This document shows, piece by piece, positions 9,715 to 44,249 of a stretch of DNA of 64,000 bases. The translations under genes were made by a program, and so were the position numbers. How positions within the stretch are numbered: position 1 is the stretch's first letter; each line of letters opens with the position of its first letter. Origin of the DNA: Deltaproteobacteria bacterium (GTDB lineage Bacteria > Desulfobacterota > Binatia > UBA12015); the NCBI GenBank assembly GCA_046583355.1, contig JAYGCM010000018.1, positions 1,302 through 65,301 of the forward strand. The letters are read 5' to 3'. The notes below the pieces were generated by a model. The model saw nothing but the letters and a program-made list of their open reading frames with translations. It did not search any database and was not told the DNA's origin.

Positions 9715-10260
9715 ATGGCGACTCGTATCGTAACCGTCGACCGAGAAAAATACCGCAAGGCGGCGGGGCCTTTTGGAGTCCGGGCTATCATGGTCGGACT
9801 CGGCGTCACTTCGCGTCATTTCTTCGGCAACCTCTGGGGCTGGATCATCGGCAAGCCTACCGTGGCCACCGTGATGTTCCCCGAGGAGCATCTGCCCAAG
9901 CCGCCCGCATTTCGTGGCATGCCCGTGCTGGTCGAAATGGACGGCGGCAAAGAGCGCTGCGTTGCTTGCGGCCTTTGCGAATGGGCCTGCCCGGTCGATT
10001 GCATTCATATCGAACCCGCCGAGACCAGCGACGAGGTCGAGCGTTACCCGCAGGTCTTCGACATCGATATGGGTCGTTGCATGTATTGCGGCCTCTGCGA
10101 AGAGGCCTGCCCCGAGGAAGCGATTGTCATGAGCGACCGCGTCGAGATCTCCGCCTTCACGCGTGCGGGAACGATGTGGCGCAAGAGCGACCTCCTGGTG
10201 CCCGCGAGCAAGCTCACGCGGCGCCTTGAGTATCTTCGCCGGAACTACGATCGGAGTTAG
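9715..10260 (+). CDS. nuoI: NADH-quinone oxidoreductase subunit I
   Basis: Two 4Fe-4S ferredoxin motifs (CVACGLCEWACP, CMYCGLCEEACP). ATG immediately follows the nuoG TAA. Confidence 0.9.
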   Translation: MATRIVTVDREKYRKAAGPFGVRAIMVGLGVTSRHFFGNLWGWIIGKPTVATVMFPEEHLPKPPAFRGMPVLVEMDGGKERCVACGLCEWACPVDCIHIEPAETSDEVERYPQVFDIDMGRCMYCGLCEEACPEEAIVMSDRVEISAFTRAGTMWRKSDLLVPASKLTRRLEYLRRNYDRS

Positions 10261-27600: not shown

Positions 27601-27659
27601 CGGTCTTCTACACTCTGATCGACGATCTGGTGCAGAAGACCCGCGGCCGAAAATGCTAG
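24606..27659 (+). CDS. efflux RND transporter permease (AcrB/HAE1 family)
   Basis: 1017 aa, 12-TM AcrB architecture. GTG start overlaps the MFP stop. Confidence 0.95.
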   Translation: MSLWALCIRRPVLATVLSLALILFGSIGFERLSVRELPDIEFPTVSIQTVLPGASPAVVEKEITEELEEAISTVEGIRTLTSSSSEESSRISIEFELDRSIDAAVQDVRDRVRSVLRYLPEEAETPVVRKVDMDARAILWISLNADDASLRELTEYAEDVVKERLQRLSGVGTIFIGGRKRFAIKVELDAARLSAHGLTVGDVSAALRRENVEIPSGRIEGRQREFVVQTEGNLASVEAFNQLVIAWTGEAPIRLRDIGVAIEGDEGERSLARFNLVPHVSVGIVKQSEANTVDVARAARAAVLAMQAALPPGYHMQVSYDGARFIEDSVAEVQGSLLIAGLLVVLVIYLFLHAPRSALIPALTIPTSLLATFGVMYFAGFTLNSLTLLALTLAIGVVVDDAIIVLENVHRHMEQGEERRAAALAGTTEIAFAAIASTLTLVAVFVPVAFVSGVIGRFFFEFGVTVVAAVVVSSFVALTLTPMLCSRFLRVDEPRGLFRRFERGFLRLSESYGEWLAWALAHRPIVALSSFGLVLAAVALFFSLSQEFVPPEDRGGFMVLLETPEGSTLEHHDRLQWPVEKILSSMPEMRAATAFIGSGSGGVGSVNSGMIFARLHDRSQRTRSQDEVLRDFRKRTADIPGIRVFATPFSGLPTGGRGRPLQFVVQAADWQRLGDESARLARAMGEIPGLVGVNSNLEVDNPELRVRIDRERAAALGVSAADIADTLRILLGGARTTRFRRGNQRYDVIVRLEEGQRAAPEQLSQIYVRSRTGALVQLANVVEVEEGVGPSSIGHYNRRRSVVLSADLDGLALGDGLAAVQSLAARMLPLDFSTTVSGQSQEMEEAFGDLSFTFLLALVAVYLVLAAQFESFVHPFTILLALPLALFGAFALLAALGMTLNIYSFIGMVMLVGLVTKNSILLVDYTNTLRARGLPRDVAVIDAAKIRLRPILMTAISTVAGILPVAVGLGAGAESRRPLGVVVAGGIAASTVLTLIVVPVFYTLIDDLVQKTRGRKC

Positions 27660-27677
27660 ACGCGTGGTGGCCTCACT

Positions 27678-28196
27678 TCAGTCGCGTGGCGGTTGCCAGG
27701 GTTTTTTCAGGCGGGGTTCGATGCCGGCTGCGAGGAATTCGTCGAGCCATCCGTTGCCGGCGTCAGGGAAGGCATCCGTCAGGGGTAAATAGGGCTTGAT
27801 ATCCAGGATGGGCGTCTGGTCGAGGAGATCGATGCCGCGGACTTCAAGAGAACCCTGCTCGGCTTCGAGGCTGAGAAGTTCGACATTGGTGAGGCCGATT
27901 TGTGAGGGGCGGTTCGGGGCGCGGGTGGCGAGTACGCCGCGTTTGGGGCCACCGCGCGGCGGCTTCACCTGCGGCGCAAATCCCTGGCTACGGTCAAAGA
28001 GGAAGATCAGCCAGATACGGGTGAAGGATTCCAGATCCTGGAGGGCGGCGCGGAATTCAGGGGCGATCTCGATGGTGCCGCGCGTGTCGGGGCGTGCGTT
28101 AGGTTGGTGCGGCGCATCTTGGCGGCGCTTCCACGGCGTGCGCGCCCGGCCGATGATCTGAATCTCCATCGCCGGGGCGCCGGACGCAGCGCTCAC
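27678..28196 (-). CDS. tsaA: tRNA (N6-threonylcarbamoyladenosine37-N6)-methyltransferase TsaA (YaeB family)
   Basis: YaeB-fold motifs (RIWLIFLFD, GVLATRAPNRPSQIGLT). ATGA overlap with the upstream D-aminoacylase stop. Confidence 0.75.
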   Translation of the reverse strand: MSAASGAPAMEIQIIGRARTPWKRRQDAPHQPNARPDTRGTIEIAPEFRAALQDLESFTRIWLIFLFDRSQGFAPQVKPPRGGPKRGVLATRAPNRPSQIGLTNVELLSLEAEQGSLEVRGIDLLDQTPILDIKPYLPLTDAFPDAGNGWLDEFLAAGIEPRLKKPWQPPRD

Positions 28197-29947
28197 GCCG
28201 GTGCGCTACGCGGGCCGCGCAACAAGCTGCCGGGCAGGGCGCCGGTAGGTTCGCCTTCTTCCATGACGACCTCGCCCGAAACCATTTTCATCACGTAGCC
28301 ATCGGCCTTCTGCAAAAGGCGGCGGGCCCCTGCGGGCAGATCGTAGGCCATCTCGGGCCGGCGCAGCGCGAGGCGGTCGAAGTCGATGAGGTTCAGGTCG
28401 GCCTTGTAGCCTGGCGCCACTACACCGCGATCGTGCAAACCATAATAGCTGGCCGTGCGCTGAGTCGTGATATGCACAGCGCGTTCGATCGGCAGGCGGG
28501 CGCCGCGTTTGCGGTCGCGCGCCCAATGCGTGAGCAGGAAGGTCGGCAATGAGGCGTCGCAGATCAGGCCGCAATGCGCGCCGCCATCGCCAAGGCTGAC
28601 GAGCGAGCGTGGGTGCTCGATCATCTCATAATGCGGGTCCAGGTTATGGTCGGAGTAGTTCAGGAGCGGCAGGAGGAGCAACTCGCGAGCATCGTCGCGC
28701 AGCATGAAATCATAGAGGACTTCGCTGGCTCCGCGGCCTTCGCGCCGGGCGATCGCGGCGACGCTCTGGCTCTCGTCGGGCTCGTAATCGGGCGGATCGC
28801 CCATCGGGAAGAGTTTGGCGCAGATCGACTCGTCGGCGAGCAGGATGTCGAAGCCATTCGGGTCGGCCATCCGCTCGTCGCCGAGCACGCGTGCGCGAAA
28901 GGCCGGGTCGCGCAGGCGCTCGGCGCGCTCGGCCAGTGGCAGGTCGGCGATCTCGACCAGGGCCGGGCGATTCATGAAGGGATTCGCCGCTGTCTGGTGG
29001 CCGGCGAGGAGGCCGAAGGGGCGTACCGCGATCTGCGCGGTGACGTTCGAGCCTTTTTCGGCCGAGCTGCGGCAGCGTTCGAGCAGCTCGCGCCAGAGCT
29101 CGGGGCGTGAGTCGAATTGCAGCATCGCAAAAGATACCGGGCAGCCGATCTCGGCCGAGAGTCGCTCCATCCAATCGATTTCGGCCAGAGCATCATCGGC
29201 GCCGTCGCCGGTCAATTCGCCCGCCGAGCCCGCCCCCGCGACCTCGAAGATGCCGCGCCCGGCGTCCGCCAGGCCGCGTGCGATGCCGAAGAGTTCGTCG
29301 TCCTGTGCGAAGGTGCCCGGCACCGGTTCACCATCGACCGCGCGGTGGCCGAGCGTGCGCGAGGTTGAAAAGCCGAAGGCTCCGACCTCGACACCTTCGC
29401 GCACGATCTGGCGCATGGCCTCGATATCGTCGGCGGTGGCCGGCTCGTTGGCGGCCCCGCGCTCGCCCATCACGTAGGCGCGCACGGCCGCATGCGGGAC
29501 GTGCGTGCCGATATCCATCGCCAATGGCGAGGCTTCGAGCGCGTCCATATATTCGGGGAAGGTCTCCCAATTCCATTGGATGCCTTCGGCGAGGGCGGCG
29601 CCGGGAATATCTTCGACTCCTTCCATCAAGCCAATCAGCCATTCGCGACGCTCGGGTGCGGCCGGTGCGAAGCCGACGCCGCAGTTGCCGAAGATGGTCG
29701 TAGTCACGCCATGCCAGCCGGTGGGCAGAAGGTGGGGATCCCAGGTGGCCTGCGCATCATAATGCGTGTGGATATCGACAAAGCCGGGTGTGACCAGACG
29801 CCCGGCGGCGTCAATTTCGCGCTGCGCTCGCCCGCTGACCTTGCCCACCTCGGTGATCTTGCCGTTGCTGATGGCGATATCGCCGGAGAAGGCCGGCGCG
29901 CCGGTGCCGTCAACAATGCGGGCGTTGCGAATCACTACGTCATGCAT
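28193..29947 (-). CDS. N-acyl-D-amino-acid deacylase (D-aminoacylase, amidohydrolase superfamily)
   Basis: MHDVVIRNARIVDGTG...GFVDIHTHYD, CGVGFAP motifs; 584 aa. Confidence 0.85.
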   Translation of the reverse strand: MHDVVIRNARIVDGTGAPAFSGDIAISNGKITEVGKVSGRAQREIDAAGRLVTPGFVDIHTHYDAQATWDPHLLPTGWHGVTTTIFGNCGVGFAPAAPERREWLIGLMEGVEDIPGAALAEGIQWNWETFPEYMDALEASPLAMDIGTHVPHAAVRAYVMGERGAANEPATADDIEAMRQIVREGVEVGAFGFSTSRTLGHRAVDGEPVPGTFAQDDELFGIARGLADAGRGIFEVAGAGSAGELTGDGADDALAEIDWMERLSAEIGCPVSFAMLQFDSRPELWRELLERCRSSAEKGSNVTAQIAVRPFGLLAGHQTAANPFMNRPALVEIADLPLAERAERLRDPAFRARVLGDERMADPNGFDILLADESICAKLFPMGDPPDYEPDESQSVAAIARREGRGASEVLYDFMLRDDARELLLLPLLNYSDHNLDPHYEMIEHPRSLVSLGDGGAHCGLICDASLPTFLLTHWARDRKRGARLPIERAVHITTQRTASYYGLHDRGVVAPGYKADLNLIDFDRLALRRPEMAYDLPAGARRLLQKADGYVMKMVSGEVVMEEGEPTGALPGSLLRGPRSAPA

Positions 29948-30091
29948 GAGTAGACGGTGTCATGCCTCGGCGCTCCCTGCCAGAGGTGCGGCCGATCGCA
30001 GCGTTGCACCGGGGCGGGGGGATTGGTTCCCTCAGGAGGTCGCGGCGATTTGCTGTGGCGCGTCGGCTGAGACAGCCAAGGAGAGAGCACC

Positions 30092-31231
30092 ATGAGCGGA
30101 CCCCTGAGCGGATTCAAAATCATCGAGATGGCGGGCATCGGCCCTGGACCCTTCTGCGGCATGATGCTCTCGGACCTCGGTGCCGAGATTCTGCGCATCG
30201 ACCGGGCAGACAAGGTGAAACCCGACGCGGTGCCCAATACGGATCTGATGGGCCGGGGCCGCCGAAGTATTGGCGTGAACCTCAAAACACCCGAGGGCGT
30301 CGAGTTGGTGCTGGGCCTCCTGGAGAAAGCCGACGGCCTGATTGAAGGCTATCGGCCCGGCGTGATGGAACGCCTCGGCCTCGGCCCTGATGCCTGCCTC
30401 GCGCGCAACCCGGGTCTGGTCTACGGCCGCATGACGGGCTGGGGGCAGGACGGACCCCTGGCCCAGGCCGCCGGACACGATATCAACTATATCGCGATTG
30501 CCGGTGCTTTGGAGCCAATGGGTCGCAGCGGCGAGGCGCCCCTTCCGCCGCTCAATCTGGTCGGCGATTTCGGCGGCGGCGGTATGTTGCTTGCCTACGG
30601 CATGGTTGCGGGGATGCTTGAGAAAACGCGGTCGGGCAAAGGCCAGGTCATCGACGCGGCCATGGTCGACGGCGCTGCCGCGCTGATGACGATGATCAAC
30701 GGAATGCGGCAGACCGGCTTCTGGAAAGAAGAGCGCGGCGCGAACCTGCTCGATACCGGTGCCTTCTATTACGATGTCTATGAGTGCAGTGATGGGAAAT
30801 TCATCTCGATCGGTGCGATCGAACCGCAATTTTATGCCGAGATGCTTGAGAAGCTGGGCTTGACGCACGACGATTTCCCAGGGCAATTCGAGCGCGAGAA
30901 ATGGCCCGCGGCCAAAGTGAAAATCGCCGCCATCTGGAAGACCAAGACGCGCGCTGCGTGGTGTGAAATCTTCGCCGGCAGCGATGCCTGCTTTGCGCCC
31001 GTGCTCGCGATGTCCGAGGCGCCTGAACATGAGCATATGAAGGCCCGCGGCACCTTCGTCGAGCGCGATGGCATGGTGCAAGCGGCGCCGGCACCGCGTT
31101 TCTCGCGCACGCCGGGCGAAATTCAGGGCCCGCCGGTGAACCCCGGGCAACATACCGACTCGGCGCTTGCCGATTGGGGGCTGTCGGCAGACGAGGTCGC
31201 CAAGCTCAAAGCGAGCAGCGCGATCGCCTAG
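30092..31231 (+). CDS. CoA transferase family III (CaiB/BaiF; alpha-methylacyl-CoA racemase-like)
   Basis: GFKIIEMAGIGPGPFCGMMLSDLGAE, GYRPGVMERLGLGPD, HDINYIA motifs; 379 aa. Confidence 0.85.
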   Translation: MSGPLSGFKIIEMAGIGPGPFCGMMLSDLGAEILRIDRADKVKPDAVPNTDLMGRGRRSIGVNLKTPEGVELVLGLLEKADGLIEGYRPGVMERLGLGPDACLARNPGLVYGRMTGWGQDGPLAQAAGHDINYIAIAGALEPMGRSGEAPLPPLNLVGDFGGGGMLLAYGMVAGMLEKTRSGKGQVIDAAMVDGAAALMTMINGMRQTGFWKEERGANLLDTGAFYYDVYECSDGKFISIGAIEPQFYAEMLEKLGLTHDDFPGQFEREKWPAAKVKIAAIWKTKTRAAWCEIFAGSDACFAPVLAMSEAPEHEHMKARGTFVERDGMVQAAPAPRFSRTPGEIQGPPVNPGQHTDSALADWGLSADEVAKLKASSAIA

Positions 31232-31317
31232 AGGCACGGCCGAAAAGCCGGGCTTTGCACAGAGGCAGGCCTGTTTTTCGGCCGGGGCGTTCGAGGTTCG
31301 GTAGTCGGCCGCCGGCG

Positions 31318-31851
31318 TCAGGAGAGTGGGAACTCGAGAAAGAAGGTGCCGGGGGCCGCGTCGTTGCCCGACTCGCCGCTATAGCCCCGACGGTGGTAGA
31401 GCCGGCGCGCTTGGCGATTGTCTTCACGGACTTCCAGGGTGACTTTGCAGCAACCGCGCTTTTCGGCTTCGCGCTCGGTGCGGCGCAATAGTTCGTTGGC
31501 AACACCGCGGCTGCGAAATTCTCGGCGGACCATCAAGTCATGCACGTTCAGAACCGGCGCGGCATGGAAGGTCGAGAAACTCATCAGGCAGACGGCCATT
31601 CCGGCCGGTTCCTCGCCCAGGTAGGCGAGGAGGACCAAGGCACCGGGTATATCGCGCAATCCGACGATCGCAGCGCGGCGCAGAGCTTCGGGCAGCCCGG
31701 AATCGTCTTCGAGCAATTCGCGTGCGTATTCGTCGAGGAGGCCGCTGAACAAGGCGGCATCCGCGGACGCGTCGAGGTCGGCTACACGGACCGTGCAGGC
31801 GGGGCCGGGCGGGATTTGTGGCGGAAGGTGTCGGAGAGTCTGGCTCATCAA
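31318..31851 (-). CDS. GNAT family N-acetyltransferase
   Basis: Acetyl-CoA binding motif RREFRSRGVANELL; 177 aa. Confidence 0.75.
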   Translation of the reverse strand: MMSQTLRHLPPQIPPGPACTVRVADLDASADAALFSGLLDEYARELLEDDSGLPEALRRAAIVGLRDIPGALVLLAYLGEEPAGMAVCLMSFSTFHAAPVLNVHDLMVRREFRSRGVANELLRRTEREAEKRGCCKVTLEVREDNRQARRLYHRRGYSGESGNDAAPGTFFLEFPLS

Positions 31852-32029
31852 TTCGTTTCAAGCGGGGGCAAGATGGAAAAAGCGGGGCTGCGTCAAAAAT
31901 ACCTTCACCCGAAGGCGATGTCCAACCTGACCAATCGGCCGGCGCATCGGCTGCAGGAGGATTCCGCTTCCAAGAGCTGCCGCGAGTTCGGTGAATTTTC
32001 GACTCGAGCGCGCTAAAAACCAAACTCCA

Positions 32030-32932
32030 ATGGCAGAGCGCATCCCCGTAACGGTTCTCAGCGGTTTTCTCGGCAGCGGCAAAACAACCCTCCTGAACCG
32101 CCTTTTGCATGATGCGCATGGCTATCGCGTGGCCGTCGTGGTCAACGAATTCGGCGAGGTTGGCATCGACGGCGCGCAGGTGGCCGGAGCCGAGCAATTC
32201 GTTGAACTCGATAATGGCTGCCTTTGCTGCACGATCAACGAAGATCTACAGCGCACTTTGCGGGAGTTGCATACACGCGGCGGTTTCGACCACCTTCTGC
32301 TCGAGACGACGGGGTTGGCCGATCCGCTGCCAGTCGGTTGGACCATGAGCAAGGAGGGTCTGGTCGAGAATTATCGTCTCGACGCGCTGATCACAGTGGT
32401 CGATGCACTCAACCTGGAACAGGCTCTCGGCGAGGCGCCCGAGGCCGAGTTGCAGATCGACCGTGCCGATATTCTCATCTTGAACAAGCTGGACCTGGTG
32501 GACGATGCGGGAGCGGCGGCCGAAGCGCGCGTCCGGACGATCAATACGCATGCGCCGATTCTGCCCGCGACGCGGGGCAATATTCCCTGGGAGGTTTTGC
32601 TTGCGGCGTCGCCCGTGGACACGATTCGCAAGGTCGGCGAAGAGAGCCACCATCATCCCTCGCTCGAAACCTGGACCTTCCAGACTCCCGAGCGATTGGA
32701 CGACCAAGCGCTCGAAGATTTTCTCTACGAAATCCTCTCCGGCGTTTATCGCCTCAAAGGAATCGTGCGGACCAATGGCCCGTTTGCGTGGACTTCCGTG
32801 AACGGTGTCGCGGGTCGATTTGAAATGGAAGATTTCGACGGGACTCCGCCTCGCCAGAGCACTCTGGTTTTCATCGGCCGTACCCTCGACCGCGAAGATC
32901 TCGCCCGGCGCTGCGCCGGGCTGCTTGCTTGA
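32030..32932 (+). CDS. CobW/COG0523 family G3E GTPase (putative metallochaperone)
   Basis: Start [23 protein letters not shown] (P-loop), CxCC motif (GCLCCT), short His-rich stretch HHHP. Confidence 0.85.
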
Positions 32933-33401
32933 ATTGCAGGCCCTTTGCCCGGCCGCCTCGGTGGGCTTCCGCGTGGCGGAATCGTCGATCGCGCTGCTGG
33001 GCATGGAGGTGCGCGCACCATCGAGCGAAATCCATCTCGCGGGTGGCAGTGCCGACCCATTGCATTTCGAGGTTACCCGCGACGGAGTGATCGAGGCCGA
33101 GATCCGCGATGCGCGCGGTTTGAAGGTTCGTTCGATGCCACTTGGCGCGTACGCATCGGGCTCGCATCTCTTCGACCCAACGACCCTCACCGAAGGAGTC
33201 GGGCTGCCCGACGGTCGCTACCATATTACCTTCCGCTATCAGGGCGGCGAAGCGGGAACGCTTGCCAGCTTCGCCGAGGGCCGTGTGGACGGCATCGAAT
33301 TCGATGAAACTGGCGATTTTCTACTTGTAGGGGGCCATCGAGAGTACGGGGCGCCCGACAGATATGGCAATCGAGGGCAGTGGGTTCTTCGTTCTCACTG
33401 A
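32933..33401 (+). pseudogene. flgD: flgD remnant (C-terminal domain only) of flagellar hook-capping protein
   Basis: Translation (GLPDGRYHITFRYQGG...VDGIEFDETGDFLLVGG) resembles the FlgD C-terminal Ig-like/Tudor region. No N-terminal half is present; the reading frame runs out of the cobW-like gene. Confidence 0.45.
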
Positions 33402-34165
33402 TGGTGACGCGCAACTCTATACCCGTGCCGGCAATTTCCACCTCGATGCGAATAGTCGCCTCGTGAACGGACAGGAATTTGCGGTGCAGGGTTTCGCACT
33501 GGACGCCGCGGGCAACGCGGTAGCAGGCGCGAGCGATATCGATTTCAGCAGCGTCAGCGCCAGTGCAGTCGAGACGACTCGGCTCGATATCTCGAACAAT
33601 CTCTCCGCCGATGCACAGGTAGTGGTTGGTGGATTTGACGGCAGTAGTTTCGCTGCCGCCTACGGCTCGAGCAATTATGCCACGACGACCAGGGTCTTCG
33701 ACTCACTCGGGCGTTCGCATGAGATGACACTCTTTTTCACCAAAACCGGTGCGAATGCCTGGGAGGTCAATGTCGGCGTCAATCGCGAGGATCTTCCGGG
33801 CAGGCAACCCCGCCGGACTCCAGATCATGGGCACGACAGGCGTGACCTTCGATGGGACGGGCGCCCTGACCGCGCCGGCCCCATTGGATATCGCGGTGAC
33901 CTTCGATGGCGCGGCCGCCCAGACCGTAGGGATCAACCTGGGCACGCCAAGCACCACTCCGGGCGACGGCCGAGTCCGGCACAGCCGAGGTGGGAACAGC
34001 GGCGGCCTGGGGAGCATCATTGGCTCCGCGATTGAGCGTGCCAATGTGGAGCTGGCAAAGGAGTTCGTTGACCTCATCTCTTTGCAGCGCAGCTTCCAGG
34101 CGAATGCCCGGGTCATCACAACCAGCGATGGCCTGCTCAATGAGCTGATCAATATCGTTCGTTAG
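33364..34165 (+). pseudogene. flgE: flgE (flagellar hook protein) remnant, N-terminally truncated and frameshifted
   Basis: Frame 1 has MAIEGSGFFVL...YTRAGNFHLD...VQGF and DSLGRSHEMTLFFTKTGANAWEV. After ~33790 the FlgE-like sequence continues in frame 2 (NPAGLQIMGTTG...ANVELAKEFVDLISLQRSFQANARVITTSDGLLNELINIVR). The ~80 N-terminal residues are absent. Confidence 0.7.
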
Positions 34166-36222
34166 GGCGCGATGGCTTCGGCGGGGGCGGGCCATGAGGG
34201 AGGATAGTCGCCCAATGGCTCAGGCCCCTTTCGGCGGCGCAACTCGGCGAAAATACGCCGCGATTGCGCGAGCTGCGCCGGGGAATATTTCAAGCGCAGG
34301 ATCTGAACGCCATCATGGTCGTAGACCAGCTCAAGGCGCGGTTGCCGGGCGAGTTTGCGGGCGTCGACGATCCCGCGTGCCGATCGACTGAAATAATAAT
34401 AACCGACGCCGCGCAGCAGCAGCTGGTTGAGCTTGCGATCAGCGAAACCGGGCTTGCGTTGCAAAGCGAATTGCCTTGCCGCCCGTTGCAGAAAGCGCGG
34501 CGCAAGCGGCGCGAGCATCGGCCCCGGGATCGTTTGGTGGCCGGTGAAGTAGGGGATCCAATAGCCGCCGTCGGTCCCCACGATGAAGTCCGGGAAGAGG
34601 GCATGGCCCGCGATCGCAAAGCGTTCGCGCGGGGCGACATTCTCGCGAATCCAGGCGAATGCTTCGATATCGGCGGTTTCGACGAGATTATGGGCGGCCG
34701 GAATTTCCTCGATCCTTGTGGGCAGCGAGAGCAGCCCGAGGACGAAAGCCGTACCGACGGCCGCCCTCTGCCAGGAGTCCTGGCGTGCCAGCGGCAGCAT
34801 CTCCCCGACGGCCTGGACGCCACAACCGAGCAGGAGAGCCAGCGGAAAATAGAGAAATATCAGAACAGAATTCAACGGTACGATATTCAGAACATGGATG
34901 CCTAAGTAGGGCACAGCGCCGAGCAGAAGGAGTGCGAGCGTCCAGGCCAGAACGATCCGACTCAGACGTTCGCCGCGCAAAAGCGCGATCGCGCCGAAAC
35001 TCAGGCCGGCAAAAATCAGCAGAGGCGAGCCCACCCATTGTGTGAGAGGGAGGGATTCCCATGTCCGGAAATACTCCTCTGCGTTCAGCCCACGCAGGTC
35101 ACCAGTCCCCGACCATGAATTGCCGTCGCTGGCGAGGAACCAATGCCCCCAGACCCAATGCCACAAGCCGCGGCCATAGCGTGGCAGGAGCAGCAGCAGG
35201 GCAGCCAAGCCGCCGCCGAGCACGGGGAGAAGGAGCTTTCTCATCCGTCCACTGCCTCGTGCCGCGGCCATCTCATGGGCGAGCGTGAAGAGCAGGAGAG
35301 GAACAAGAAAAAGCGCCACACGCAGATGCACCAGGGCTACGGCGGCCGAAAGAAGAATGGCGAAAGCGCCGAGGATGGCGGTTGGTGGGCCGGCGGCCGA
35401 CGAGGATGGCCGGTGCAGGCGGCGCAGCCACTCCCAACTGACGACCCAGGCAATCGGCAGAATCGCCTGGCCGGCGACCTGGGTGAAGCGGCCCCACCCG
35501 AGATACGCACTCGGCATGGAATTGATCAGACCGACGCTGAGGGCACCCACCAGGGCAGCCGGCCGTGAGACGTGGCGGTCAAGCACCAGATAAACACCGA
35601 GGGCGGCCAGCGCATTGAGAAGTTGGCCCATCCACACCAGCGCGACAAAACCCTCCACATTGCCGAGCCAGGCCGTAGCGGCGGTGATCGCATAGAGGCC
35701 AAGGTGGTAGCGATCCAGCTCGATGGCCGGGAAGACGGGCATCGTCTGCGGTAAAAGACCGCTGCGCGCCACCTCTTCAGTCAGCATGGCATGGTGCAGG
35801 GAATCGGTAAGGGGAGGCACGGGGAAGAGATCGGCAAGCCAGGCCCGCAGGCCGACGATCAGCGCGAAGGCCAAGAGCGCCAGGGCCTCTCCCGATCCGA
35901 CGCGAAGCGTCGCGGGGCGCCGCCAGAGTTGGGCCAGGACCATCAGCCCCGCCAGGCCGATTAGGACCTGGAAAAAACCGGCCTCCAGCGGCGGCCAGGT
36001 GGGCCAGACGACGCGCAAGACGCCGGCGGCGGCGAAGAGGAGAGGCGGTAGAGCGGCGCCGATTCCGGCGGCCACGAGCCAGCCCTGGAGGCCACGAAAG
36101 CTCCGATCGAGGCCACAGGCGCCCAGCAGGGCACGGCCCGGCAAAAGCAATAGGGCGAGTGCAGCGAGTGCGGCGCAAAGTTCGGCGTGGCTCGAAGGCA
36201 TGGCTGAGGAACCTGGTATCAT
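34162..36222 (-). CDS. large polytopic membrane protein of unknown function (possible GT-C-like)
   Basis: 686 aa; >10 predicted TM helices in the first ~450 aa and a C-terminal soluble domain. No recognisable catalytic motif. Confidence 0.55.
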   Translation of the reverse strand: MIPGSSAMPSSHAELCAALAALALLLLPGRALLGACGLDRSFRGLQGWLVAAGIGAALPPLLFAAAGVLRVVWPTWPPLEAGFFQVLIGLAGLMVLAQLWRRPATLRVGSGEALALLAFALIVGLRAWLADLFPVPPLTDSLHHAMLTEEVARSGLLPQTMPVFPAIELDRYHLGLYAITAATAWLGNVEGFVALVWMGQLLNALAALGVYLVLDRHVSRPAALVGALSVGLINSMPSAYLGWGRFTQVAGQAILPIAWVVSWEWLRRLHRPSSSAAGPPTAILGAFAILLSAAVALVHLRVALFLVPLLLFTLAHEMAAARGSGRMRKLLLPVLGGGLAALLLLLPRYGRGLWHWVWGHWFLASDGNSWSGTGDLRGLNAEEYFRTWESLPLTQWVGSPLLIFAGLSFGAIALLRGERLSRIVLAWTLALLLLGAVPYLGIHVLNIVPLNSVLIFLYFPLALLLGCGVQAVGEMLPLARQDSWQRAAVGTAFVLGLLSLPTRIEEIPAAHNLVETADIEAFAWIRENVAPRERFAIAGHALFPDFIVGTDGGYWIPYFTGHQTIPGPMLAPLAPRFLQRAARQFALQRKPGFADRKLNQLLLRGVGYYYFSRSARGIVDARKLARQPRLELVYDHDGVQILRLKYSPAQLAQSRRIFAELRRRKGPEPLGDYPPSWPAPAEAIAP

Positions 36223-36424
36223 GTCTCGCCTGCAGAGGCCCGACGGTCAGGATTCCCGACCAGGGGGGCGGACTTTCTGACTGTGGCGAAAAGATGATAC
36301 CCGAGAAAAGCGCAGCAAAACCTTGGCGCTTTTACCGCTCGCGGCCGAGAGGAGAGGTTTATCGTCAGGCACGCGAGTTGCACTAAGCCCCAATGTGTCC
36401 GGTTTTCCGGACCGGGAGGATTTG

Positions 36425-37366
36425 ATGGCAGCCGCAGCAGAAGGAACCGAAGATGTCCCAAACGAGAAGAAAAACGCCGCTGGGGGCAAGAGCAAGATTC
36501 TGATGATCGTACTGCCTCTGCTTCTCCTTGTCGGAGGCGGCGGTCGCTACCTCAAGACCACCATCGAGGTTGAGTTCGTCTCCGACACGGCTTCAGATAC
36601 CGAGGAAGCCCGCTCTTACGATATTCTCGGCGAGGAGCGTTCGGCAACCCGACAATTTCCAGGTCTGGATCTGGTGCACGACCGTTTCATCCGCATCATG
36701 CGTCAGGCGCTCGGGACTCTGGTCGGCACGGCGGTCACAATCGAGATCGCCTCGGTAGATGGCCTGCGCTTCGCGGCCCTGCGCAATCGCCTCGAAGCAG
36801 GGGTGCCCGTCTGCCTTTTTCGGATGTCGCCGCTGCGCGGGCAGGCAATCGCAGCCTTCGCTCCCTCCTTGATCTTTCAGATGATTGATCGAATCTTCGG
36901 GGGCTCCGGACGTCCGCCAACCCAATTGGAAGAACGTGAATATTCGCCCCTGTAATTGCGGATCCTCGGCCGCATCCTCGATACCATACTTGCTGAATAT
37001 AGCGCTGCATGGGCGCCGATCGCAGCGCTGCAATGTACGTACTCCCGGACCGAGGTGAATCCGGCGGTGGTCTCGATCGCCGGCCCCGATGACATGGTTC
37101 TGGTGATGGAACTGACCTGTGACCTCGGTTGCGGTGCGGCAAAATTACACCTTGGAATTCCCTACGCGATGCTCGAACCCGTGCGGGTCAAGCTGAATGA
37201 GGCGATGCACCATGGTGGAGGGGCCGATTGCCTTGATCGGCAAACTCGAAGAGAAACAGCCGGCCTCGTGCGGGCGCCCATCGCCGTGAATATGAATACG
37301 CTCGAAGCGTGTCAGTTGGTCCTCGAATACAGCAAGCTGGCGCCCGCCCATCGCGTGATCGGCTAG
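36425..37366 (+). pseudogene. fliM: fliL'-fliM' chimeric remnant with internal in-frame TAA
   Basis: Residues 1-45 look like a FliL N-terminus (K-rich then a TM helix, KSKILMIVLPLLLLVGGGG). The rest is FliM-like (LDLVHDRFIR..., RMSPLRGQAIAAFAPSLIFQMIDRIFGG, LRILGRILDT...AW, GIPYAMLEPVR). A TAA at 36953-36955 interrupts a conserved segment. The FliM C-terminal SpoA domain and fliN are missing. Confidence 0.65.
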
Positions 37367-37392
37367 CCAGTCAGCCTGAGACGGCCTGGAAT

Positions 37393-38295
37393 TCAGGCGG
37401 GGGGAAGGCCGGTCAGGAAGTCGCGGATGACCTCGGCGACGGCCTCGGGTTTTTCGAGGTGGAGGCTATGGGTGGTTCCCGCAATCTCGGCGCCCGTGGC
37501 CGCGGGGAAACGCGCGACCATCTCGGCGTATTCGTTTGCCGGTAATATCGAGGACTCGCCTCCGCGTAAAACCAGAACCGGGATTTTGATCTCGCGGAAG
37601 CGATCGGGAAAATCCGCCAGCATATTGCCGTCAGGATCGCGGGGACCGCGCATGCGCGCCCAATGAAATTTCGACAAAAATCCCCCCTCGTCCGAGGCGC
37701 GAAAACTATGCCCGGCGAGATGCTCAACGACGGCGTCATTCGCCTTATGCGGCAGCGGGTAGGGTTGAAAGCCGCGCGTCGCCACCTCCCAGGAAGGATA
37801 GCGAATCTGCGGCACCCGACGCAGACGATCGCCGGTGCGACGCATGCTCGGTGCCAATGGGTCAAAGGGCATATCGAGGAGGATCAGGGCGCGCAGCGGC
37901 AAGCGTTGGCGCAAGGCGAGCGGCACCGAGAGCACGCCGCCCTGGGAATGGCCGAGGAGGATCCAAGGTGCCGGGTCGACCTGCATGCAGGCGGCCTCGA
38001 TATCTTCGATATCGCGCCGAAACCCATAATTGCCTGGTTCGGTCCAATCGCTCTCTCCGTGTCCGCGCCTATCCAGCGCGAAGGGGCGGGCCACGTCGCG
38101 CAGGCGAGGTGCGAGGAAATCAAAGAAGCGCGAATGTGCCATGCCGCCGTGCAGGCACATCAGCGGCGAGGCATCGACGCGCCCGCGATAATCGGTCAAA
38201 TGAAAGGAGAGATCGTCGATCGTCAGGGATCGCTCCGCAAAGGTCTCGACCACGTCCGCGCCGGCCAAGCCCCCGGCGGTCTTTTCTTCTTTCAT
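37393..38295 (-). CDS. alpha/beta hydrolase fold protein
   Basis: HGGMAHS oxyanion region and nucleophile elbow GHSQGG; 300 aa. Confidence 0.8.
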   Translation of the reverse strand: MKEEKTAGGLAGADVVETFAERSLTIDDLSFHLTDYRGRVDASPLMCLHGGMAHSRFFDFLAPRLRDVARPFALDRRGHGESDWTEPGNYGFRRDIEDIEAACMQVDPAPWILLGHSQGGVLSVPLALRQRLPLRALILLDMPFDPLAPSMRRTGDRLRRVPQIRYPSWEVATRGFQPYPLPHKANDAVVEHLAGHSFRASDEGGFLSKFHWARMRGPRDPDGNMLADFPDRFREIKIPVLVLRGGESSILPANEYAEMVARFPAATGAEIAGTTHSLHLEKPEAVAEVIRDFLTGLPPA

Positions 38296-38312
38296 ATCGG
38301 CCGCGCCGCCGA

Positions 38313-40223
38313 TCAGATATCGACGTCCGCTACTGCGGTCGCACGTTCCATGATGAGCTCGTAGCGCGGCGCGACATCCTTGCCCATCAGGGCTCGGATC
38401 ATCGTATCGGTGCTCTCGGCATCGTCGATCGTCACGCGCAGCATGGAGCGCGTGTCGGGGTCCAGCGTGGTGAGCTTCAAGGTCTTGGGGTTCATCTCGC
38501 CCAGGCCCTTGAAGCGGGTGATCTGCGGCGTCGCGCGGCTTTTGCTGCGCGCGATGAAAGCAGCCTTTTCTTCTTCGTCCTGCGCCCAGCAGGTCTCTTT
38601 GCCGATATCGACCCGGTAGAGCGGTGGCACTGCAAGATAGAGGTGCCCGCCGGCGATCAACTGCGGCATATGGCGGTAGAAGAAGGTCATCAGCAAAGTG
38701 GCAATATGATGCCCGTCGGAATCGGCGTCCATCAGGAGGATGAGCTTGTGGTAGCGCAGCTTGGAGGCGTCAAAGTCGTTGCCCAAACCGCAGCCCATCG
38801 CCTTCACGATGTCCGAGAGTTCCGCGTTGGCAAGCACCTTCGCGCGCGAGGCGGTTTCGGTATTCAGAACCTTGCCGCGCAAGGGCAGGATCGCCTGAAA
38901 TTTTCGATCACGGCCCTGCTTGGCCGAGCCGCCGGCGGAGTCGCCCTCGACCAGGAAGAGCTCTGATTTCCGCGGGTCGGTCGAGGAGCAATCGGCGAGT
39001 TTTCCGGGCAGGTTCAGGCGATGCGAGACCGCGCTTTTGCGCGTCACCTCTTTGGCCGCAGCACGCGAGGCGCTGCGCGCCCGCGCTGCCAGCACGACGC
39101 GACTGGCAATCGCCTCGGCCGAAGAGCGGTGCCCGTTGAGCCAGTTTTCGAGCGCGTTGCGGATGAAGGAATCGACCGCGCTCGCGGCTTCGGGGTTGTT
39201 CAAGCGACCCTTGGTCTGGCCCTGGAATTGCGGCTCGGGAAGAAAGCAGGAAAGAATTCCGACGACGCCTTCGCGGACATCGTCAGCAGTAATCGCGACG
39301 CCACGCGGCACCAGATTATGGATGTCGAGGTAGTTGCGCACTGCTTTCACCAGACCGGATTTCAGACCGTTCTCATGTGTGCCACCGTCGGTGGTGGGGA
39401 TGCTGTTGACGAACGACGAAATTCCCTCGGTCGGGTCCTCGGTCCAGGCCAGCGCGCAATCAATATGAATCCCCTTGCCGTCCTTGGTGGAGTGGAAGAT
39501 CTCGGCGGGTATTCGCTTTTGCTTGCGCCTCTCGATCTGCTTCTCGAGGTAGGCCCGGATGCCTTCCTCGTAATGGTAGAGATGCTTCTCGCCCGTCGTT
39601 TTGTCGTCAAAAACGACATGCAGACCTTTGTGCAGATAAGCCTTCGACTCCAGCCGTTCGGCGATCGTTGCTGAATTAAACCTGACGTTGCCGAAAATAT
39701 CGGGGTCGGGATGGAACTCGATCTCGGTTCCCGTGCCGCGGATTTTTCTGCCCTTCTTGAGCTTGGTCGTCGGCTTGCCGCGTGAGAATTTCTGCTCGAA
39801 TTCGTGGCCGTCGCGGCGGACCCGTACCGTCATCACATCCGAGAGGGCGGTTACGACGGAGGCGCCGACGCCATGCAAGCCACCGGAGTGGAAATAGTTG
39901 GTTGCCTCGAACTTGCCGCCGGCGTGCAGGGTGGTGAGGATCAGTTCCAGCGCAGGCTTGCGATATTTCTTGTGCATATCGACGGGGATGCCACGCCCGT
40001 CGTCGCGGACGCTGAGGGTCTCGCCGTCCTTCGCGAGTACGACCTCTATCTTCTCGCAATGGCCGTTCATGGCCTCGTCGACTGAGTTGTCGACAATCTC
40101 CCAAAGAAGGTGGTGCAATCCGGTCGCGTTGACGCCGCCGATGTACATGCCGGGCCGCTTGCGCACCGGCTCCAATCCCTCCAGGACCGTAATATCCTTG
40201 GCTGTATACTCTTTTGCCACCAC
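38313..40223 (-). CDS. parE: type IIA topoisomerase B subunit (probably topoisomerase IV ParE)
   Basis: GLEPVRKRPGMYIGG, EIVDNSVDEA, Toprim and C-terminal domains; ~637 aa. GTG start chosen just downstream of GGAGG. Confidence 0.75.
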   Translation of the reverse strand: MVAKEYTAKDITVLEGLEPVRKRPGMYIGGVNATGLHHLLWEIVDNSVDEAMNGHCEKIEVVLAKDGETLSVRDDGRGIPVDMHKKYRKPALELILTTLHAGGKFEATNYFHSGGLHGVGASVVTALSDVMTVRVRRDGHEFEQKFSRGKPTTKLKKGRKIRGTGTEIEFHPDPDIFGNVRFNSATIAERLESKAYLHKGLHVVFDDKTTGEKHLYHYEEGIRAYLEKQIERRKQKRIPAEIFHSTKDGKGIHIDCALAWTEDPTEGISSFVNSIPTTDGGTHENGLKSGLVKAVRNYLDIHNLVPRGVAITADDVREGVVGILSCFLPEPQFQGQTKGRLNNPEAASAVDSFIRNALENWLNGHRSSAEAIASRVVLAARARSASRAAAKEVTRKSAVSHRLNLPGKLADCSSTDPRKSELFLVEGDSAGGSAKQGRDRKFQAILPLRGKVLNTETASRAKVLANAELSDIVKAMGCGLGNDFDASKLRYHKLILLMDADSDGHHIATLLMTFFYRHMPQLIAGGHLYLAVPPLYRVDIGKETCWAQDEEEKAAFIARSKSRATPQITRFKGLGEMNPKTLKLTTLDPDTRSMLRVTIDDAESTDTMIRALMGKDVAPRYELIMERATAVADVDI

Positions 40224-40306
40224 ACCACCTCCGCTATGAACCCGGGCAGGAATAACCCGAAACGACTCCGATCGCGAGCACTCTCCCCACGCGCTGACGA
40301 GAGCGA

Positions 40307-41440
40307 TCAATCCAAAGCGAAACGCTCCGGCGCCAGGCGGGCTGCGTCGAAACATGAGGTGCGTCCCGAGGCGATCAATTCGGCAGCAATCCGCGCATAG
40401 GCCGGGCTGGTCTCGATGCCGGCCCCTCCCTGGCCGGCGAGCCAGAAGAAGCCCGGTCGCCGTGGGTCGGCGCCGATAACAGGCGCTCCGTCTGGGGCAA
40501 AGGTACGCAGGCCGGACCAGCGCGAGCGAATGGTCCGCGGCACAAGCGAGGGCGCAAGATCGCGCAATCGCTCGATCGCGGCGGCGATCGTCTCCTCGTC
40601 GGGACTCGGGTCGCAGGCCTGCATGGGAACCTGGTCCATCGGACTGAGCATCAACGAACCAGCCTCGGGCACGAAATAGACGTTATGCGGGTCGCTCCAG
40701 ACCATCGGCCAGTCCGCAAAATCGGCGTCGGCCGGGCCGGGAAAGGTAAAGAGCGAGCGGCGCTTCGGCTGCAAGGGAATCGGACTTGCTTCGGCCAATG
40801 CGCCGATATGCCCGGCCCAGGCGCCGGCGGCATTCACGACCAGGTCGGCACGCACATCGCCCTGGGGCAGACGCACGCCGACCACGCGGGGGCCATCGCG
40901 CAAAAGACCCGCCACCTCGGCGCCCAGGACCAACTCCGCCCCCGCGGCGCGGGCATGGCGCAGATAGCTTTGCAGAATCCCGTGTACATCCAAACGGCCA
41001 TCGTGAGCGATGAAGAGTCCGCCTGCGATCCCCGGTGCCGCCAGTACAGGCATCTTCGCCCGGCAAGAGGCTGCGGATAGGAGTTCAAATTCCAAGCCCC
41101 GGCTGCGCAACTCGGCCTCACGCGCTGCCAGCGCGGCCCAGCCCTCGGCGGCGAAGAGCGACAGGACGCCGATCGGGTTGAGCGGCGCGTCGGCGAAAAG
41201 GGCAGCTGGTGGATTGCGCCAGAAGCGCGAGCCGAGGATCTTCAGGTCGAGCACGACCTCGTTTTCATCAAACGCACTGATGGACGCAGCACTGCGGCCC
41301 GTCGCATGGACGGCGAGCTGAGTCTCACGCTCGAGAATCAGGACGTCTCCGATGCCCTCATCGGCAAGGAAAGAGGCGAGGGAGGCCCCGGCGATGCCGC
41401 CTCCAATGATGATCACGTCATAGCCGGCAGCTGGCTTCAT
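40307..41440 (-). CDS. FAD-dependent oxidoreductase (DAO family)
   Basis: N-terminal FAD motif DVIIIGGGIAGASLA; 377 aa. Confidence 0.8.
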   Translation of the reverse strand: MKPAAGYDVIIIGGGIAGASLASFLADEGIGDVLILERETQLAVHATGRSAASISAFDENEVVLDLKILGSRFWRNPPAALFADAPLNPIGVLSLFAAEGWAALAAREAELRSRGLEFELLSAASCRAKMPVLAAPGIAGGLFIAHDGRLDVHGILQSYLRHARAAGAELVLGAEVAGLLRDGPRVVGVRLPQGDVRADLVVNAAGAWAGHIGALAEASPIPLQPKRRSLFTFPGPADADFADWPMVWSDPHNVYFVPEAGSLMLSPMDQVPMQACDPSPDEETIAAAIERLRDLAPSLVPRTIRSRWSGLRTFAPDGAPVIGADPRRPGFFWLAGQGGAGIETSPAYARIAAELIASGRTSCFDAARLAPERFALD

Positions 41441-41691: not shown

Positions 41692-42585
41692 ATGAGTATT
41701 CACGACGATCAGTTGAAAAAGGTGCAGAACGAGGACGGGTTTCTCGCAGCCCTGGACCAGAGCGGCGGCAGCACGCCGAAGGCACTCAAACTCTACGGCG
41801 TCGAAGAGAACGAATATTCCGGCGAAGCCGAGATGTTCGACCGCATCCACGCGATGCGCACGCGCATCATGGCGAGCTCGGTCTTCGGCGGCGATCGTAT
41901 TCTCGGCGCCATCCTCTTTGAGATGACAATGGATCGCAAAGTCGAGGGCCAGCACTCGGCGGCCTACCTCTGGAACGAGAAAAAGGTCGTCCCTTTCCTG
42001 AAGACCGACAAGGGCCTGGCGGACGAAGCAAATGGCGTACAGGTGATGAAGCCGATGCCGGATCTCGATGCGCTCTGCGAGCGTGCGGTTACCAAGGCGG
42101 TTTTCGGCACCAAGATGCGCTCGGTCGTGAAACTCGCCAATGCGCAGGGAATCGACGCGATTGTCGAGCAACAATTTGCTATTGGAAAGCAGATCATCGG
42201 GCATGGTCTGGTGCCCATCCTGGAGCCCGAAGTTGATATCCATAGCCCGGAAAAAGCACAGGCAGAGTCCTTGCTTCGTGCCGCTCTTCTCGCCCATGCC
42301 GGACAACTCGCCGACGACCAGCAAATCATGCTCAAGCTGACCTTGCCCGAAGAGGACGGCTTCTACACGGAACTGATCGATCATCCGCGCGTCATCAAGG
42401 TGGTCGCACTCTCGGGCGGCTACAGCCGTGACGAGGCAAACACGCGATTGGGCCGGAACAAGGGCATGATCGCGAGCTTCTCGCGCGCGCTGACGCAGGG
42501 GCTTTCGGCCAAGCAGAGCGACGCCGAGTTCGACAAAATGTTGGACGGCTCGATCGAGTCGATCTTCCAGGCCTCCCGCACATGA
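41692..42585 (+). CDS. fda: fructose-bisphosphate aldolase, class I (Fda/PRK05377 type)
   Basis: [52 protein letters not shown] match the staphylococcal-type class I FBA along its whole length. Confidence 0.85.
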
Positions 42586-44249
42586 GCTTCGAGCGAGACC
42601 GGCGCGGCCCCGGATCTGCGGGTCCGCCGCGCGACGATAGACGAGGACCGCCACGCGACTTCAGCCCCGGTGGACCGGGTCGCGACGACCGTCGTGGTCC
42701 GCCACGCGGGGATTTCCGTGGTCCGCCACGCGACGATAGACGAGGACCGCCACGCGACTTCAGCCCCGGTGGACCGGGTCGCGACGACCGCCGTGGTCCG
42801 CCGCGCGGGGATTTCCGTGGTCCGCCACGCGACGATAGACGAGGATCGCCGCGTGACTTCAGCCCCGGTGGGCCGGGCCGCGATGACCGCCGTGGCCCGC
42901 CGCGCGAGGATTTCCGTGGTCCGCCGCGCGACGATAGACGAGGACCGCCACGTGATTTTCGCGGCGAACCGCGCCGCGACGAAGGCAGACGCCCAGCCGA
43001 GGCGCGCGACGGCGGCAGCGAGCGGCCCGAACCCCGCAAGCCATTGCTGCGTCACGTTCCAAAAACAGACCAGGTTCAATGCCCGCATTGGCCCGCCTGC
43101 ATCGGCTGCCCGGGGATGGGGCGCTCCTATACGAAGCAATTGACCGTCAAGCATCAGAAGCTGGTGGATGCCTTTGCCGAGCATTCCGAACTCGAAGGCG
43201 TACAGATTCTCAGCCCGGTCGGGAGCCCACGGGCCACAGGCTACCGCAATCACGCCAAGCTCGTCTTCCGGGCGCGCCGCAACCGCGAAACGCTTGAGGA
43301 CGAAGTGATCCTTGGCGTCTTCAAGCCGGGCACCCATAGCGTCATGCCGGCCGATTCCTGTATTGTCCACCATCGCCGCCTGCAGCCGCTCCTGCGCGTG
43401 CTGCGCAGGGAAGTCGAGGAACTCGGGATTCCGATCTACGACGAGCGGACCGGGGAGGGTGCGCTGCGCTTCGCCTTGGCCCGGACCTCCGATATGGCCA
43501 GCCGAACCCATCTGACCCTGGTCTCCGCCACCGACAAGATCCAGAAATTGAACACCTTGGTGCTGCGCATGCAGCATAAGTTCAAGGAATTGGAGTCGGT
43601 CTTTCTCTGCGTGAACGCAGAGGGCGGCAACCAACTCCTGACCGATGATATCCGGCAGATCAAAGGCCCGCCGGCGCTGCGTGAGAAATTCGGCGACCTG
43701 ATTCTGGAGTCGCGCTCGGGCGCTTTCCTGCAGGCCAATACGGAGATTGCTTCCCGCATCTACGATACCGCAGCACGCTGGCTGGATGCTTGGGCGGCCG
43801 AGGGTGTCATCGACCTCTATTGCGGGGTGGGCGCGTTGGGTCTCGCCGCAGCAGGGCGCAATACGCGCCTGCTGGGCATCGAAGCGTCCAAGTCGGCGGT
43901 CGAATGCGCGACGGCGAATGCGAAACGCATGCAGCGTCATGGCGCTGAATTCGTCGCAGCACCTGCTGAAGATGTTGGTAAAATCGCGGCCGAAAAGGGC
44001 TTCGCAAAGCCGGCGGCACTGATCGTCAACCCGCCGCGGCGAGGTTTGAGTCAGGAAGCGGGTGACGCGATCCTGAAACTCGCGCCGCGCCGGATTCTCT
44101 ATGTCTCGTGTAACCTGGAGACATTGACGCGCGATCTACTCGCGTTCGTGCGCGAGGGCTGGGTGGTTAGCCGAGCACGTATGTTCGATATGCTGCCGCA
44201 AACGCCGCATATCGAGATCATGGTCCTGATGGAGCGTCGGGCTACCTGA
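42582..44249 (+). CDS. 23S rRNA (uracil-C5)-methyltransferase RlmD/RumA family with R/D/P-rich repetitive N-terminal extension
   Basis: ATGA overlap with the fda stop. Residues 14-125 are 16/17-aa RDDRRGPPR(G)DF... repeats. A 4-Cys cluster follows ([12 protein letters not shown]), then SAM-MTase motifs ([16 protein letters not shown]). Confidence 0.85.
42620..42960. repeat. 99-bp tandem repeat (~3.3 copies) encoding the [33 protein letters not shown] super-repeat
   Basis: Near-identical 99-nt units visible directly in the DNA, inside the CDS. Confidence 0.8.

Follow-up and report, generated by a model that had tools for sequence, protein, structure and literature searches.

The open reading frame (ORF) at positions 36425-37366 on the forward strand of a 64-kb stretch of DNA, hereafter the window, from the metagenome-assembled genome (MAG) of an uncultured marine Binatia bacterium is, with high confidence, what remains of the right half of a flagellar gene cluster and no longer functions. 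In one frame it joins two fragments of fliL to the middle domain of fliM, is interrupted by an in-frame TAA, and ends in a 45-codon tail; the whole probably represents a three-gene fliL'-fliM'-fliW' fusion. We compared this ORF, which served as the query, with marine contigs carrying an intact cluster, with a contig of the same species, and with related lineages in which the locus holds no flagellar DNA. The genomic scope was the 64-kb window of the MAG, whose parE gene places it among Candidatus Binatia MAGs (83% and 75% identity).

Structure of the fliL-fliM fusion

The ORF comprises 176 codons, a TAA at 36953-36955, a further 136 codons in the same frame and a TAG at 37364-37366. A GGGAGG ribosome-binding site lies 6 nucleotides (nt) 5' of it, and this site and the ATG are both included in the DNA alignment to locus L001, one of two TARA Oceans contigs (L001 and L002; scaffold_355 and k119_214761) whose FliM is protein P0001. 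The first 40 residues (36425-36544, forward strand) correspond to residues 1-38 of L001 FliL and comprise the start codon, a Lys-rich cytoplasmic tip, a transmembrane helix and a GGGG run. Residues 1-28 matched L001 FliL 1-27 in BLASTP (E 5e-5), and the helix corresponds to the hydrophobic stretch ILMIVLPLLLLV, which was read straight from the sequence. Residues 41-51 (36545-36577, forward strand; RYLKTTIEVEF) form a second fragment that corresponds to FliL 89-99, and window 36524-36578 aligned with L001 9730-9784 at 87% identity over 55 nt (blastn, E 8e-13; BLASTP, E 4e-9). These 11 residues are what remains of the periplasmic FliL domain, for which no PF03748 match was found in the ORF.

The fusion of fliL to fliM falls at 36578-36583 (forward strand; Val52-Ser53), a junction whose origin is ambiguous within about ±5 codons. 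From 36584 to 37228 (forward strand; residues 54-268) the ORF is colinear with FliM 26-240 with no insertion or deletion (indel), at 67.9% identity to L001 FliM over 215 amino acids (aa) by tblastn (E 3e-101). A hidden Markov model (HMM) of the clade, built from the 19 closest FliM proteins, aligned chimera residues 52-269 with FliM 24-241 (E 1e-98) and gave no match past 241, such that the FliM part begins at about residue 24-28 and ends at 240-241. In Pfam, PF02154 matched both before the TAA (profile 1-110, E 1.4e-20) and after it (114-192, E 2.6e-16), and with the stop bridged it matched positions 1-192 of 192 in a single stretch (E 1.8e-43). The middle domain was further identified by F158-G159-G160 of the FGG(x)G segment, which is invariant in an 11-sequence alignment.

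Both ends of FliM are lost. FliM residues 1 to about 25 have been replaced by FliL sequence, and with them the CheY-binding peptide (LSQxEVDALL) is gone; an N-terminus of the form M..(T/V/H)LSQ(D/N/A)E(V/I)(D/N).L(L/I) was present in 10/10 FliM homologues, and its LSQDEVDALL peptide is known as the CheY-P binding site. At the other end, Pfam gave no match to the SpoA domain (FliMN_C, PF01052) in the ORF even with E values as high as 1 allowed. The clade HMM aligned as far as position 241 of 323, and its C-terminal part was matched by none of the frames of 37150-37400. The SpoA domain of FliM is required for FliN binding and C-ring assembly. Of FliM, the ORF thus holds the middle domain only, and it lies outside the functional FliM family; it does not form an open fliM frame with fliN next in a flagellar operon. 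The original prediction, made from the sequence alone, had described a fliL'-fliM' deletion chimera devoid of the SpoA domain, which the matches to FliL (BLASTP, blastn) and FliM (Pfam, HMM) bear out. It was right in placing a FliL start before FliM; the FliM part, which it had begun at about residue 30, begins at about 24-28, and the FliL part is made of two fragments (1-38 and about 89-99). Its single internal deletion joining the genes proved too simple, since the 5' part needed at least two deletions.

The in-frame stop codon

The TAA (36953-36955, forward strand) stands at FliM Glu149 in L001 numbering. The corresponding column is Glu in 10/10 aligned homologues (REYSxxE), in keeping with the predicted conservation of the residue, and the codon is GAG in L001 and in L099, the next-closest flagellar cluster. 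Since Glu occupies this column in all homologues, the TAA is most simply explained by one G-to-T substitution in a GAA codon. Run SRR22098103 supplied a second copy of the locus on L091, a Logan contig of 7.2 kb from the same species as the window (99.2-99.9% identical). Across 36704-37392, a stretch that takes in the TAA and the boundary with the neighbouring hydrolase gene, L091 is 100% identical to the window, and the exact 176-aa and 136-aa products of the ORF are present on further Logan and ENA contigs. The TAA is therefore genuine, not a sequencing error.

An intact counterpart of the former cluster

A search with the stop-bridged protein returned 29 FliM proteins, all of about 320 aa and all (29/29) carrying both PF02154 and PF01052, with P0001 as the best match (68% identical). 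The clusters of L001-L003, from TARA Oceans and other marine contigs, share the order fliG-fliH-fliI-(fliJ)-?-(fliK)-flgD-flgE-X(-)-fliL-fliM-fliN-O-P-Q-R-flhB-A-F-G-fliA-?-flgF-G, in which X is an unrelated gene on the opposite strand. L001 FliL is full length (168 aa, PF03748), and L001 FliM (323 aa) has PF02154 and PF01052. As a tblastx comparison of the whole window with L001 was swamped by short chance matches, we used tblastn with individual proteins instead. With all 24 L001 cluster proteins, no fliN, fliO, fliP or later cluster gene was found in the 64 kb, as predicted for the first three, and no flagellar gene was found there besides two relics.

The other relic lies at 32985-34162 (forward strand) and consists of FlgD 84-199 fused to FlgE 72-285, followed by FlgE 370-424 (tblastn, Pfam). 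The internal FlgE segment 286-369 is lost, and FlgE 370-424 is 94.5% identical to L001. A tandem duplication of GGCA at 33799-33802 breaks the flgE' frame in the window; L091, without the duplication, keeps a 257-aa ORF there, and its FlgE 72-285 is still a single tblastn segment. Between the two relics the window carries X (34162-36222, reverse strand), an intact gene for a 686-aa polytopic membrane protein with about 54-55% identity to the 677-aa gene of L001. X occupies 7220-9253 in L001, 2612-4639 in L094 and 10001-12055 in L096, ranging from 660 to 690 aa; it has no Pfam match here, and distant homologues carry DUF6541 (PF20176). Its orthologues are kept in relatives at 78-99% identity.

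In gene order and strand, the genes represented in the window match those of L001-L003, and the opposite-strand 677-686-aa X stands between flgE and fliL in both. Relative to L001, the window has lost FliL 39-88 and about 100-168, FliM 1-25 and 241-323, and all downstream genes, and has acquired the TAA at Glu149. Because X lies between flgE and fliL in the intact cluster as well, the flgDE and fliLM relics are the two sides of one former cluster split by X. The original prediction had counted the fliLM relic as separate from the flgDE remnant; the 2 kb between them hold X, just as in L001, and this separation does not stand.

Outside the flagellar cluster of L001, X is a resident gene: every non-flagellate Binatia examined has it flanked by a Peptidase_M50 gene and cobW, and in L099 (FliM 49% identical) flgE is directly followed by fliL without X between them. 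The cluster may have formed around X in an ancestor, with many losses since, or it may have been placed secondarily on both sides of an X that was already there. The verdict that the ORF is a relic is unaffected by which of these applies.

Allelic variation within the species

L091 spans hydrolase-fliM'-fliL'-X-flgE'-flgD'-cobW and offers a second allele of the relic. A 161-bp segment of the window (36543-36703, forward strand) is deleted in L091. The frame is shifted as a result, and the second fliL' fragment, the fusion junction and FliM 26-65 are lost. Between the two alleles we counted 25 substitutions and 3 indels in 2238 bp of relic DNA, against 18 substitutions and 0 indels in 4994 bp of intact genes. 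Per site, substitutions are thus about three times as frequent in relic DNA (Fisher p 3.5e-4), which also holds 3/3 of the indels (p 0.03). Decay is thus ongoing in the population through private deletions and frameshifts. That the alleles of one species do not even share an ORF is a strong argument against function.

Divergence between the alleles is uneven. The 320 bp at 36223-36542 hold 10 substitutions and 1 indel, and the 1452 bp at 36704-38155 hold 1 substitution (0.07%), suggesting either a recombination boundary at the 161-bp deletion or two haplotypes of different history.

The 45-codon tail

The last 45 codons before the TAG (37229-37366, forward strand; chimera residues 269-313, 37229-37363) follow fliM' in frame and probably represent the 3' end of fliW. 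Searched against Pfam, the tail had FliW (PF02623) as its sole match (E 0.0047, 17.1 bits, cut-off 25), tail residues 14-41 aligning with profile positions 93-120 of 122. Against NCBIfam the sole match was the FliW equivalog NF009793 (E 0.089, 12.4 bits, cut-off 130; profile 97-130 of 132). Both FliW matches finish at the stop codon of the ORF itself. Ten shuffled tails reached a best E of 0.14, none of them flagellar, and the codon-usage periodicity of the tail is coding-like when read in the fliM' frame or antisense to it; its minus strand gave no family match in Pfam or NCBIfam. As FliW was the sole match in two libraries, we lean towards reading the tail as the fliW 3' end. If the cluster decayed in place, a fliW gene would be expected near the right end of the intact cluster, with its last 40 or so residues aligning to ...TAGLVRAPIAVNMNTLEACQLVLEYSKLAPAHRVIG of the tail.

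Two other origins were tried and rejected. A frame-shifted continuation of FliM or FliN was discarded, as 0/6 frames of the tail matched the clade FliM HMM and blastn and tblastx against 94 loci also gave nothing. A remnant of an AI-2E transporter gene at 37229-37392 was discarded as well, since Smith-Waterman alignments to six orthologues were no better than those of shuffles (p 0.39-0.99).

Proposed course of the decay

The former cluster had the order flgD-flgE-[X, opposite strand]-fliL-fliM-fliN..., and the relic arose from it by at least four lesions, which may have occurred in the order given here. The first is a 150-nt in-frame deletion in fliL, joining the transmembrane helix to FliL residue 89. 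The fliL gene of L001 has two imperfect direct copies of a 28-nt sequence, one at 9572-9599 and the other at 9722-9749; both encode a Gly run in the same frame, and the window switches from one copy to the other within the repeat. From this position of the repeats, we infer slipped-strand or illegitimate, short-homology recombination between them, and their spacing of 150 nt (50 codons) accounts for the deletion being in frame. A second deletion of about 290 nt, from about FliL codon 100 to about FliM codon 25, fused the two genes in frame. It took away FliL residues from about 100 to 168 and the first 25 or so residues of FliM, among them the CheY-binding LSQDEVDALL.

The third lesion, a large deletion or rearrangement starting at FliM codon 241, removed the SpoA domain and all downstream flagellar genes and left, most probably, the last 35-45 or so codons of fliW, now abutting the hydrolase-parE block, which has another location in relatives. 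With a fliW' tail, a third deletion would have had both its ends in flagellar DNA. Gene orientations fit an inversion or a large deletion alike. The fourth is the nonsense mutation, G to T, at Glu149. Near the breakpoints (32-41 kb) no insertion sequences were noticed, no dedicated mobile-element search having been run. The lesions can be read directly from the DNA, and the ORF that bears them is non-functional.

Alternative explanations

As the window comes from a MAG, in which chimeric joins and consensus errors happen, the TAA might be a sequencing error or the fliM'/hydrolase junction a mis-assembly, with an intact fliM-fliN at the locus; the original prediction had named such an error, together with an intact fliM-fliN, as what would overturn it. 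We consider this vanishingly improbable: L091, an independent assembly from another run, spans both the TAA and the hydrolase junction identically, the products up to the TAA and past it (176 and 136 aa) recur on other contigs, and the two deletions within fliL and fliM would have inactivated these genes even without the TAA, to which they are unrelated. A different possibility, and an extremely unlikely one, is that the fusion is a living gene. A membrane-anchored FliL(transmembrane)-FliM(middle)-FliW(C-terminal) protein, or the 176-aa product, would then still be made with a residual or new function, for example with FliG- or CheC-like partners, and the TAA might be tolerated or read through. 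The frame kept through all three fusions, the retained GGGAGG site and ATG, the absence of indels from the FliM part with its low ratio of nonsynonymous to synonymous substitution rates (dN/dS, 0.15 against the intact relative), and the zero differences between alleles over 36704-37392 would all fit such a gene. However, in L091 the FliM part is no longer in the reading frame set by the start codon, owing to the 161-bp deletion, and the low dN/dS spans the long branch to L001, which is mostly time before inactivation. The CheY-binding peptide and SpoA domain are both lost, the partner genes (fliN, fliG and the export apparatus) are absent from the locus, and the closest sister lineages have deleted the region entirely.

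It is also very unlikely that the fragments are foreign scraps that landed beside X by horizontal transfer or by recombination with a flagellated relative, even though X lies between M50 and cobW without flagellar genes in L096/L097, L098 and the sister lineages, a cluster with X inside is unusual given the direct succession of flgE and fliL in L099, and divergence between the window and L091 is patchy. Scraps would hardly account for fragments on both sides of X in the order and orientation of L001 (flgD-flgE | X | fliL-fliM), and L001 groups with the window clade in the tree of X (97% bootstrap), as vertical descent predicts. The identities of flgE, fliM and X to L001 (54-94%) fall within the range of neighbouring housekeeping genes compared with L008, a relative that shares the right-hand part of the window; the G+C content of the relic is 0.56-0.60 versus 0.63-0.65 for two neighbouring intact genes, and its codon-position pattern is near that of the host.

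Some observations weigh against the view that the ORF is the decayed remnant of a cluster that once ended here in fliW. At 17 bits, the FliW match falls short of the curated cut-off of 25, and a phmmer search of the tail against 1.84 billion representatives returned the self-match only, with no match among PDB sequences. All three fusions are in one frame, which could hint at past selection for translation; this is tempered by an in-frame chance of about 1 in 9, the first fusion being in frame by mechanism. Divergence between the alleles is 3.4% immediately left of the 161-bp deletion but 0% on the right, and they may have a complex recombinant history, not one of simple successive decay. The ancestral neighbours, cobW upstream and fliW at the right end, are reconstructed and were not seen, the comparison of the window covering 64 kb and the L001 loci. 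A second intact flagellar locus elsewhere in the genome, and hence motility, is possible.

Timing of the loss

The relic, in which both sides of X still carry flagellar remnants, is one of several states of the locus among relatives. L091, with X 99% identical to that of the window, has the same arrangement and the same relic. L092 and L093 (X 80%) and L094 (X 78%) have the arrangement M50-X-cobW with no flagellar DNA at the locus, and L096/L097 and L098 (X 51-53%) have copA-M50-X-cobW-GNAT-..., again with no flagellar DNA there. L001 (X 54%) has X within an intact flagellar cluster, and in a neighbour-joining tree of X it joins the clade of the window, L092 and L094.

For the fliM relic against L001, dN/dS was in line with the 0.12-0.18 of parE, parC, DAO and the hydrolase in pairs of the window and L008, although synonymous divergence is saturated and these ratios are indicative only. 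A relative-rate test revealed no window-specific excess of amino-acid changes (10-19 versus 14-25 in the intact lineage). These genes were therefore under purifying selection for nearly the whole time since the split from L001. From the dN/dS of 0.15 and the lack of rate acceleration we infer that inactivation was recent and that the losses in L092 and L094 were independent; the comparison with relatives that the original prediction had proposed for dating the loss thus points to a recent event. A more far-reaching scenario, which we regard as rather unlikely, is that a complete flagellar regulon was acquired or translocated around a resident X and was lost at least three times, independently and recently, in the lineages of the window, L092 and L094, with the window caught mid-decay and lesions polymorphic at the strain level.

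Further searches were made for relatives and for the habitat of the species. A profile search of genome contigs with the X alignment gave zero relatives, and the species was absent from GTDB representatives under the patterns used; the same alignment searched against metagenome contigs returned a single 34%-identical locus, which was uninformative. Exact look-ups of the neighbouring hydrolase brought up no record. A literature search by sample accessions for the habitat of SRR22098103 and related runs gave nothing.

Flagellar loss in context

Flagellar pseudogenes are known from non-motile lineages such as Shigella, Yersinia pestis, Bordetella pertussis and symbionts of insects and protists. 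There, decay proceeds by nonsense mutations, frameshifts and small or large deletions; fragments still match HMMs, strains carry private lesions, and losses are independent. The present relic is a new instance of this well-known process and nothing new in kind. It differs in its probable three-gene in-frame fusion and in its host, an uncultured marine Candidatus Binatia bacterium that may be free-living or host-associated and is not a known pathogen or endosymbiont. In Ircinia sponge metagenomes, depletion of flagellin, of 31 flagellar-assembly genes and of 11 chemotaxis genes has been described, 14 Binatia MAGs were recovered from sponges, and complete motility-gene depletion by phylum was given for Proteobacteria only (PMC9531527). 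A sponge setting is thereby one possible ecology for flagellar loss in Binatia, and for the window no more than a lead.

Profile searches still call FliM, FlgD and FlgE in this MAG, and counting them as evidence of motility for Binatia would be wrong. Although ordinary in kind, the decay is unusually well documented through relatives that hold the whole cluster or none of it. They form a staged series that runs from the intact cluster of the TARA relative, through the fused and truncated relic with strain-specific lesions in the window and L091, to the clean loss in L092 and L094. This series shows a loss that is recent and probably repeated, in which deletion bias erases a system of about 25 kb and spares one embedded, unrelated gene. 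The breakpoints illustrate two mechanisms, deletion between short direct repeats and tandem duplication of 4 bp.

Neighbouring genes and the right-hand junction

Directly after the relic and convergent with it, as had been predicted, an alpha/beta hydrolase gene (37393-38295, reverse strand; Pfam) starts 26 nt past the stop codon of the ORF; it is 100% identical to NCBI MFP6663378.1. It is followed by parE, an FAD oxidoreductase, an aldolase, a trmA-like gene and parC. In L004 (hydrolase 79% identical), L008 and L009, the hydrolase is followed on its other side by genes for an AI-2E transporter, ECH, a selD-like protein, a DEAD helicase and the mevalonate pathway, and the blastn alignment of the window with L004 extends precisely as far as the stop codon of the hydrolase gene, ending at 37396. 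Neither this AI-2E-ECH-selD-like-DEAD-mevalonate block nor the M50-copA-enolase block that flanks X in relatives is present in the window. Since both blocks are missing, the adjacency of fliW' and the hydrolase is a rearrangement specific to the window lineage.

To the left, window 23530-36120 is colinear with L096 (Binatia MAG GCA_965658895) and L098, so that synteny breaks only to the right of X. This part (23530-32932) holds an RND efflux pair and trmO, amidohydrolase, CoA-transferase, GNAT and cobW genes. The whole window had matches to 0 Rfam families and held 0 tRNAs. In a scan of 36100-37500, 0 sigma-70 promoter sites were found, and terminator-like sites showed no excess over shuffles.

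In L008 (9674-9994) and L009 (9684-10004), parE and the hydrolase gene are separated by a gene for a 106-aa rhodanese; there is none in the window (38296-38315) or in L004, where the gap between the two genes is 17-18 nt. Relatives have a parE product of 636-640 aa. In the window the longest parE ORF (38313-40355, reverse strand; 680 aa) begins about 42 codons further upstream, within the end of the preceding FAD-oxidoreductase gene (40307-41440, reverse strand); the true parE start is probably near 40229, and the extension an ORF-calling artefact of high G+C. The trmA-like methyltransferase gene (42582-44249, forward strand) encodes 555 aa in the window, 559 aa in L009 (3708-5387) and 375 aa in L008 (4006-5133). 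The 375-aa protein aligns end to end with window 43116-44240 at 78.7% identity, which makes the N-terminal 180 or so residues an extension that some lineages lack or in which it is not called.

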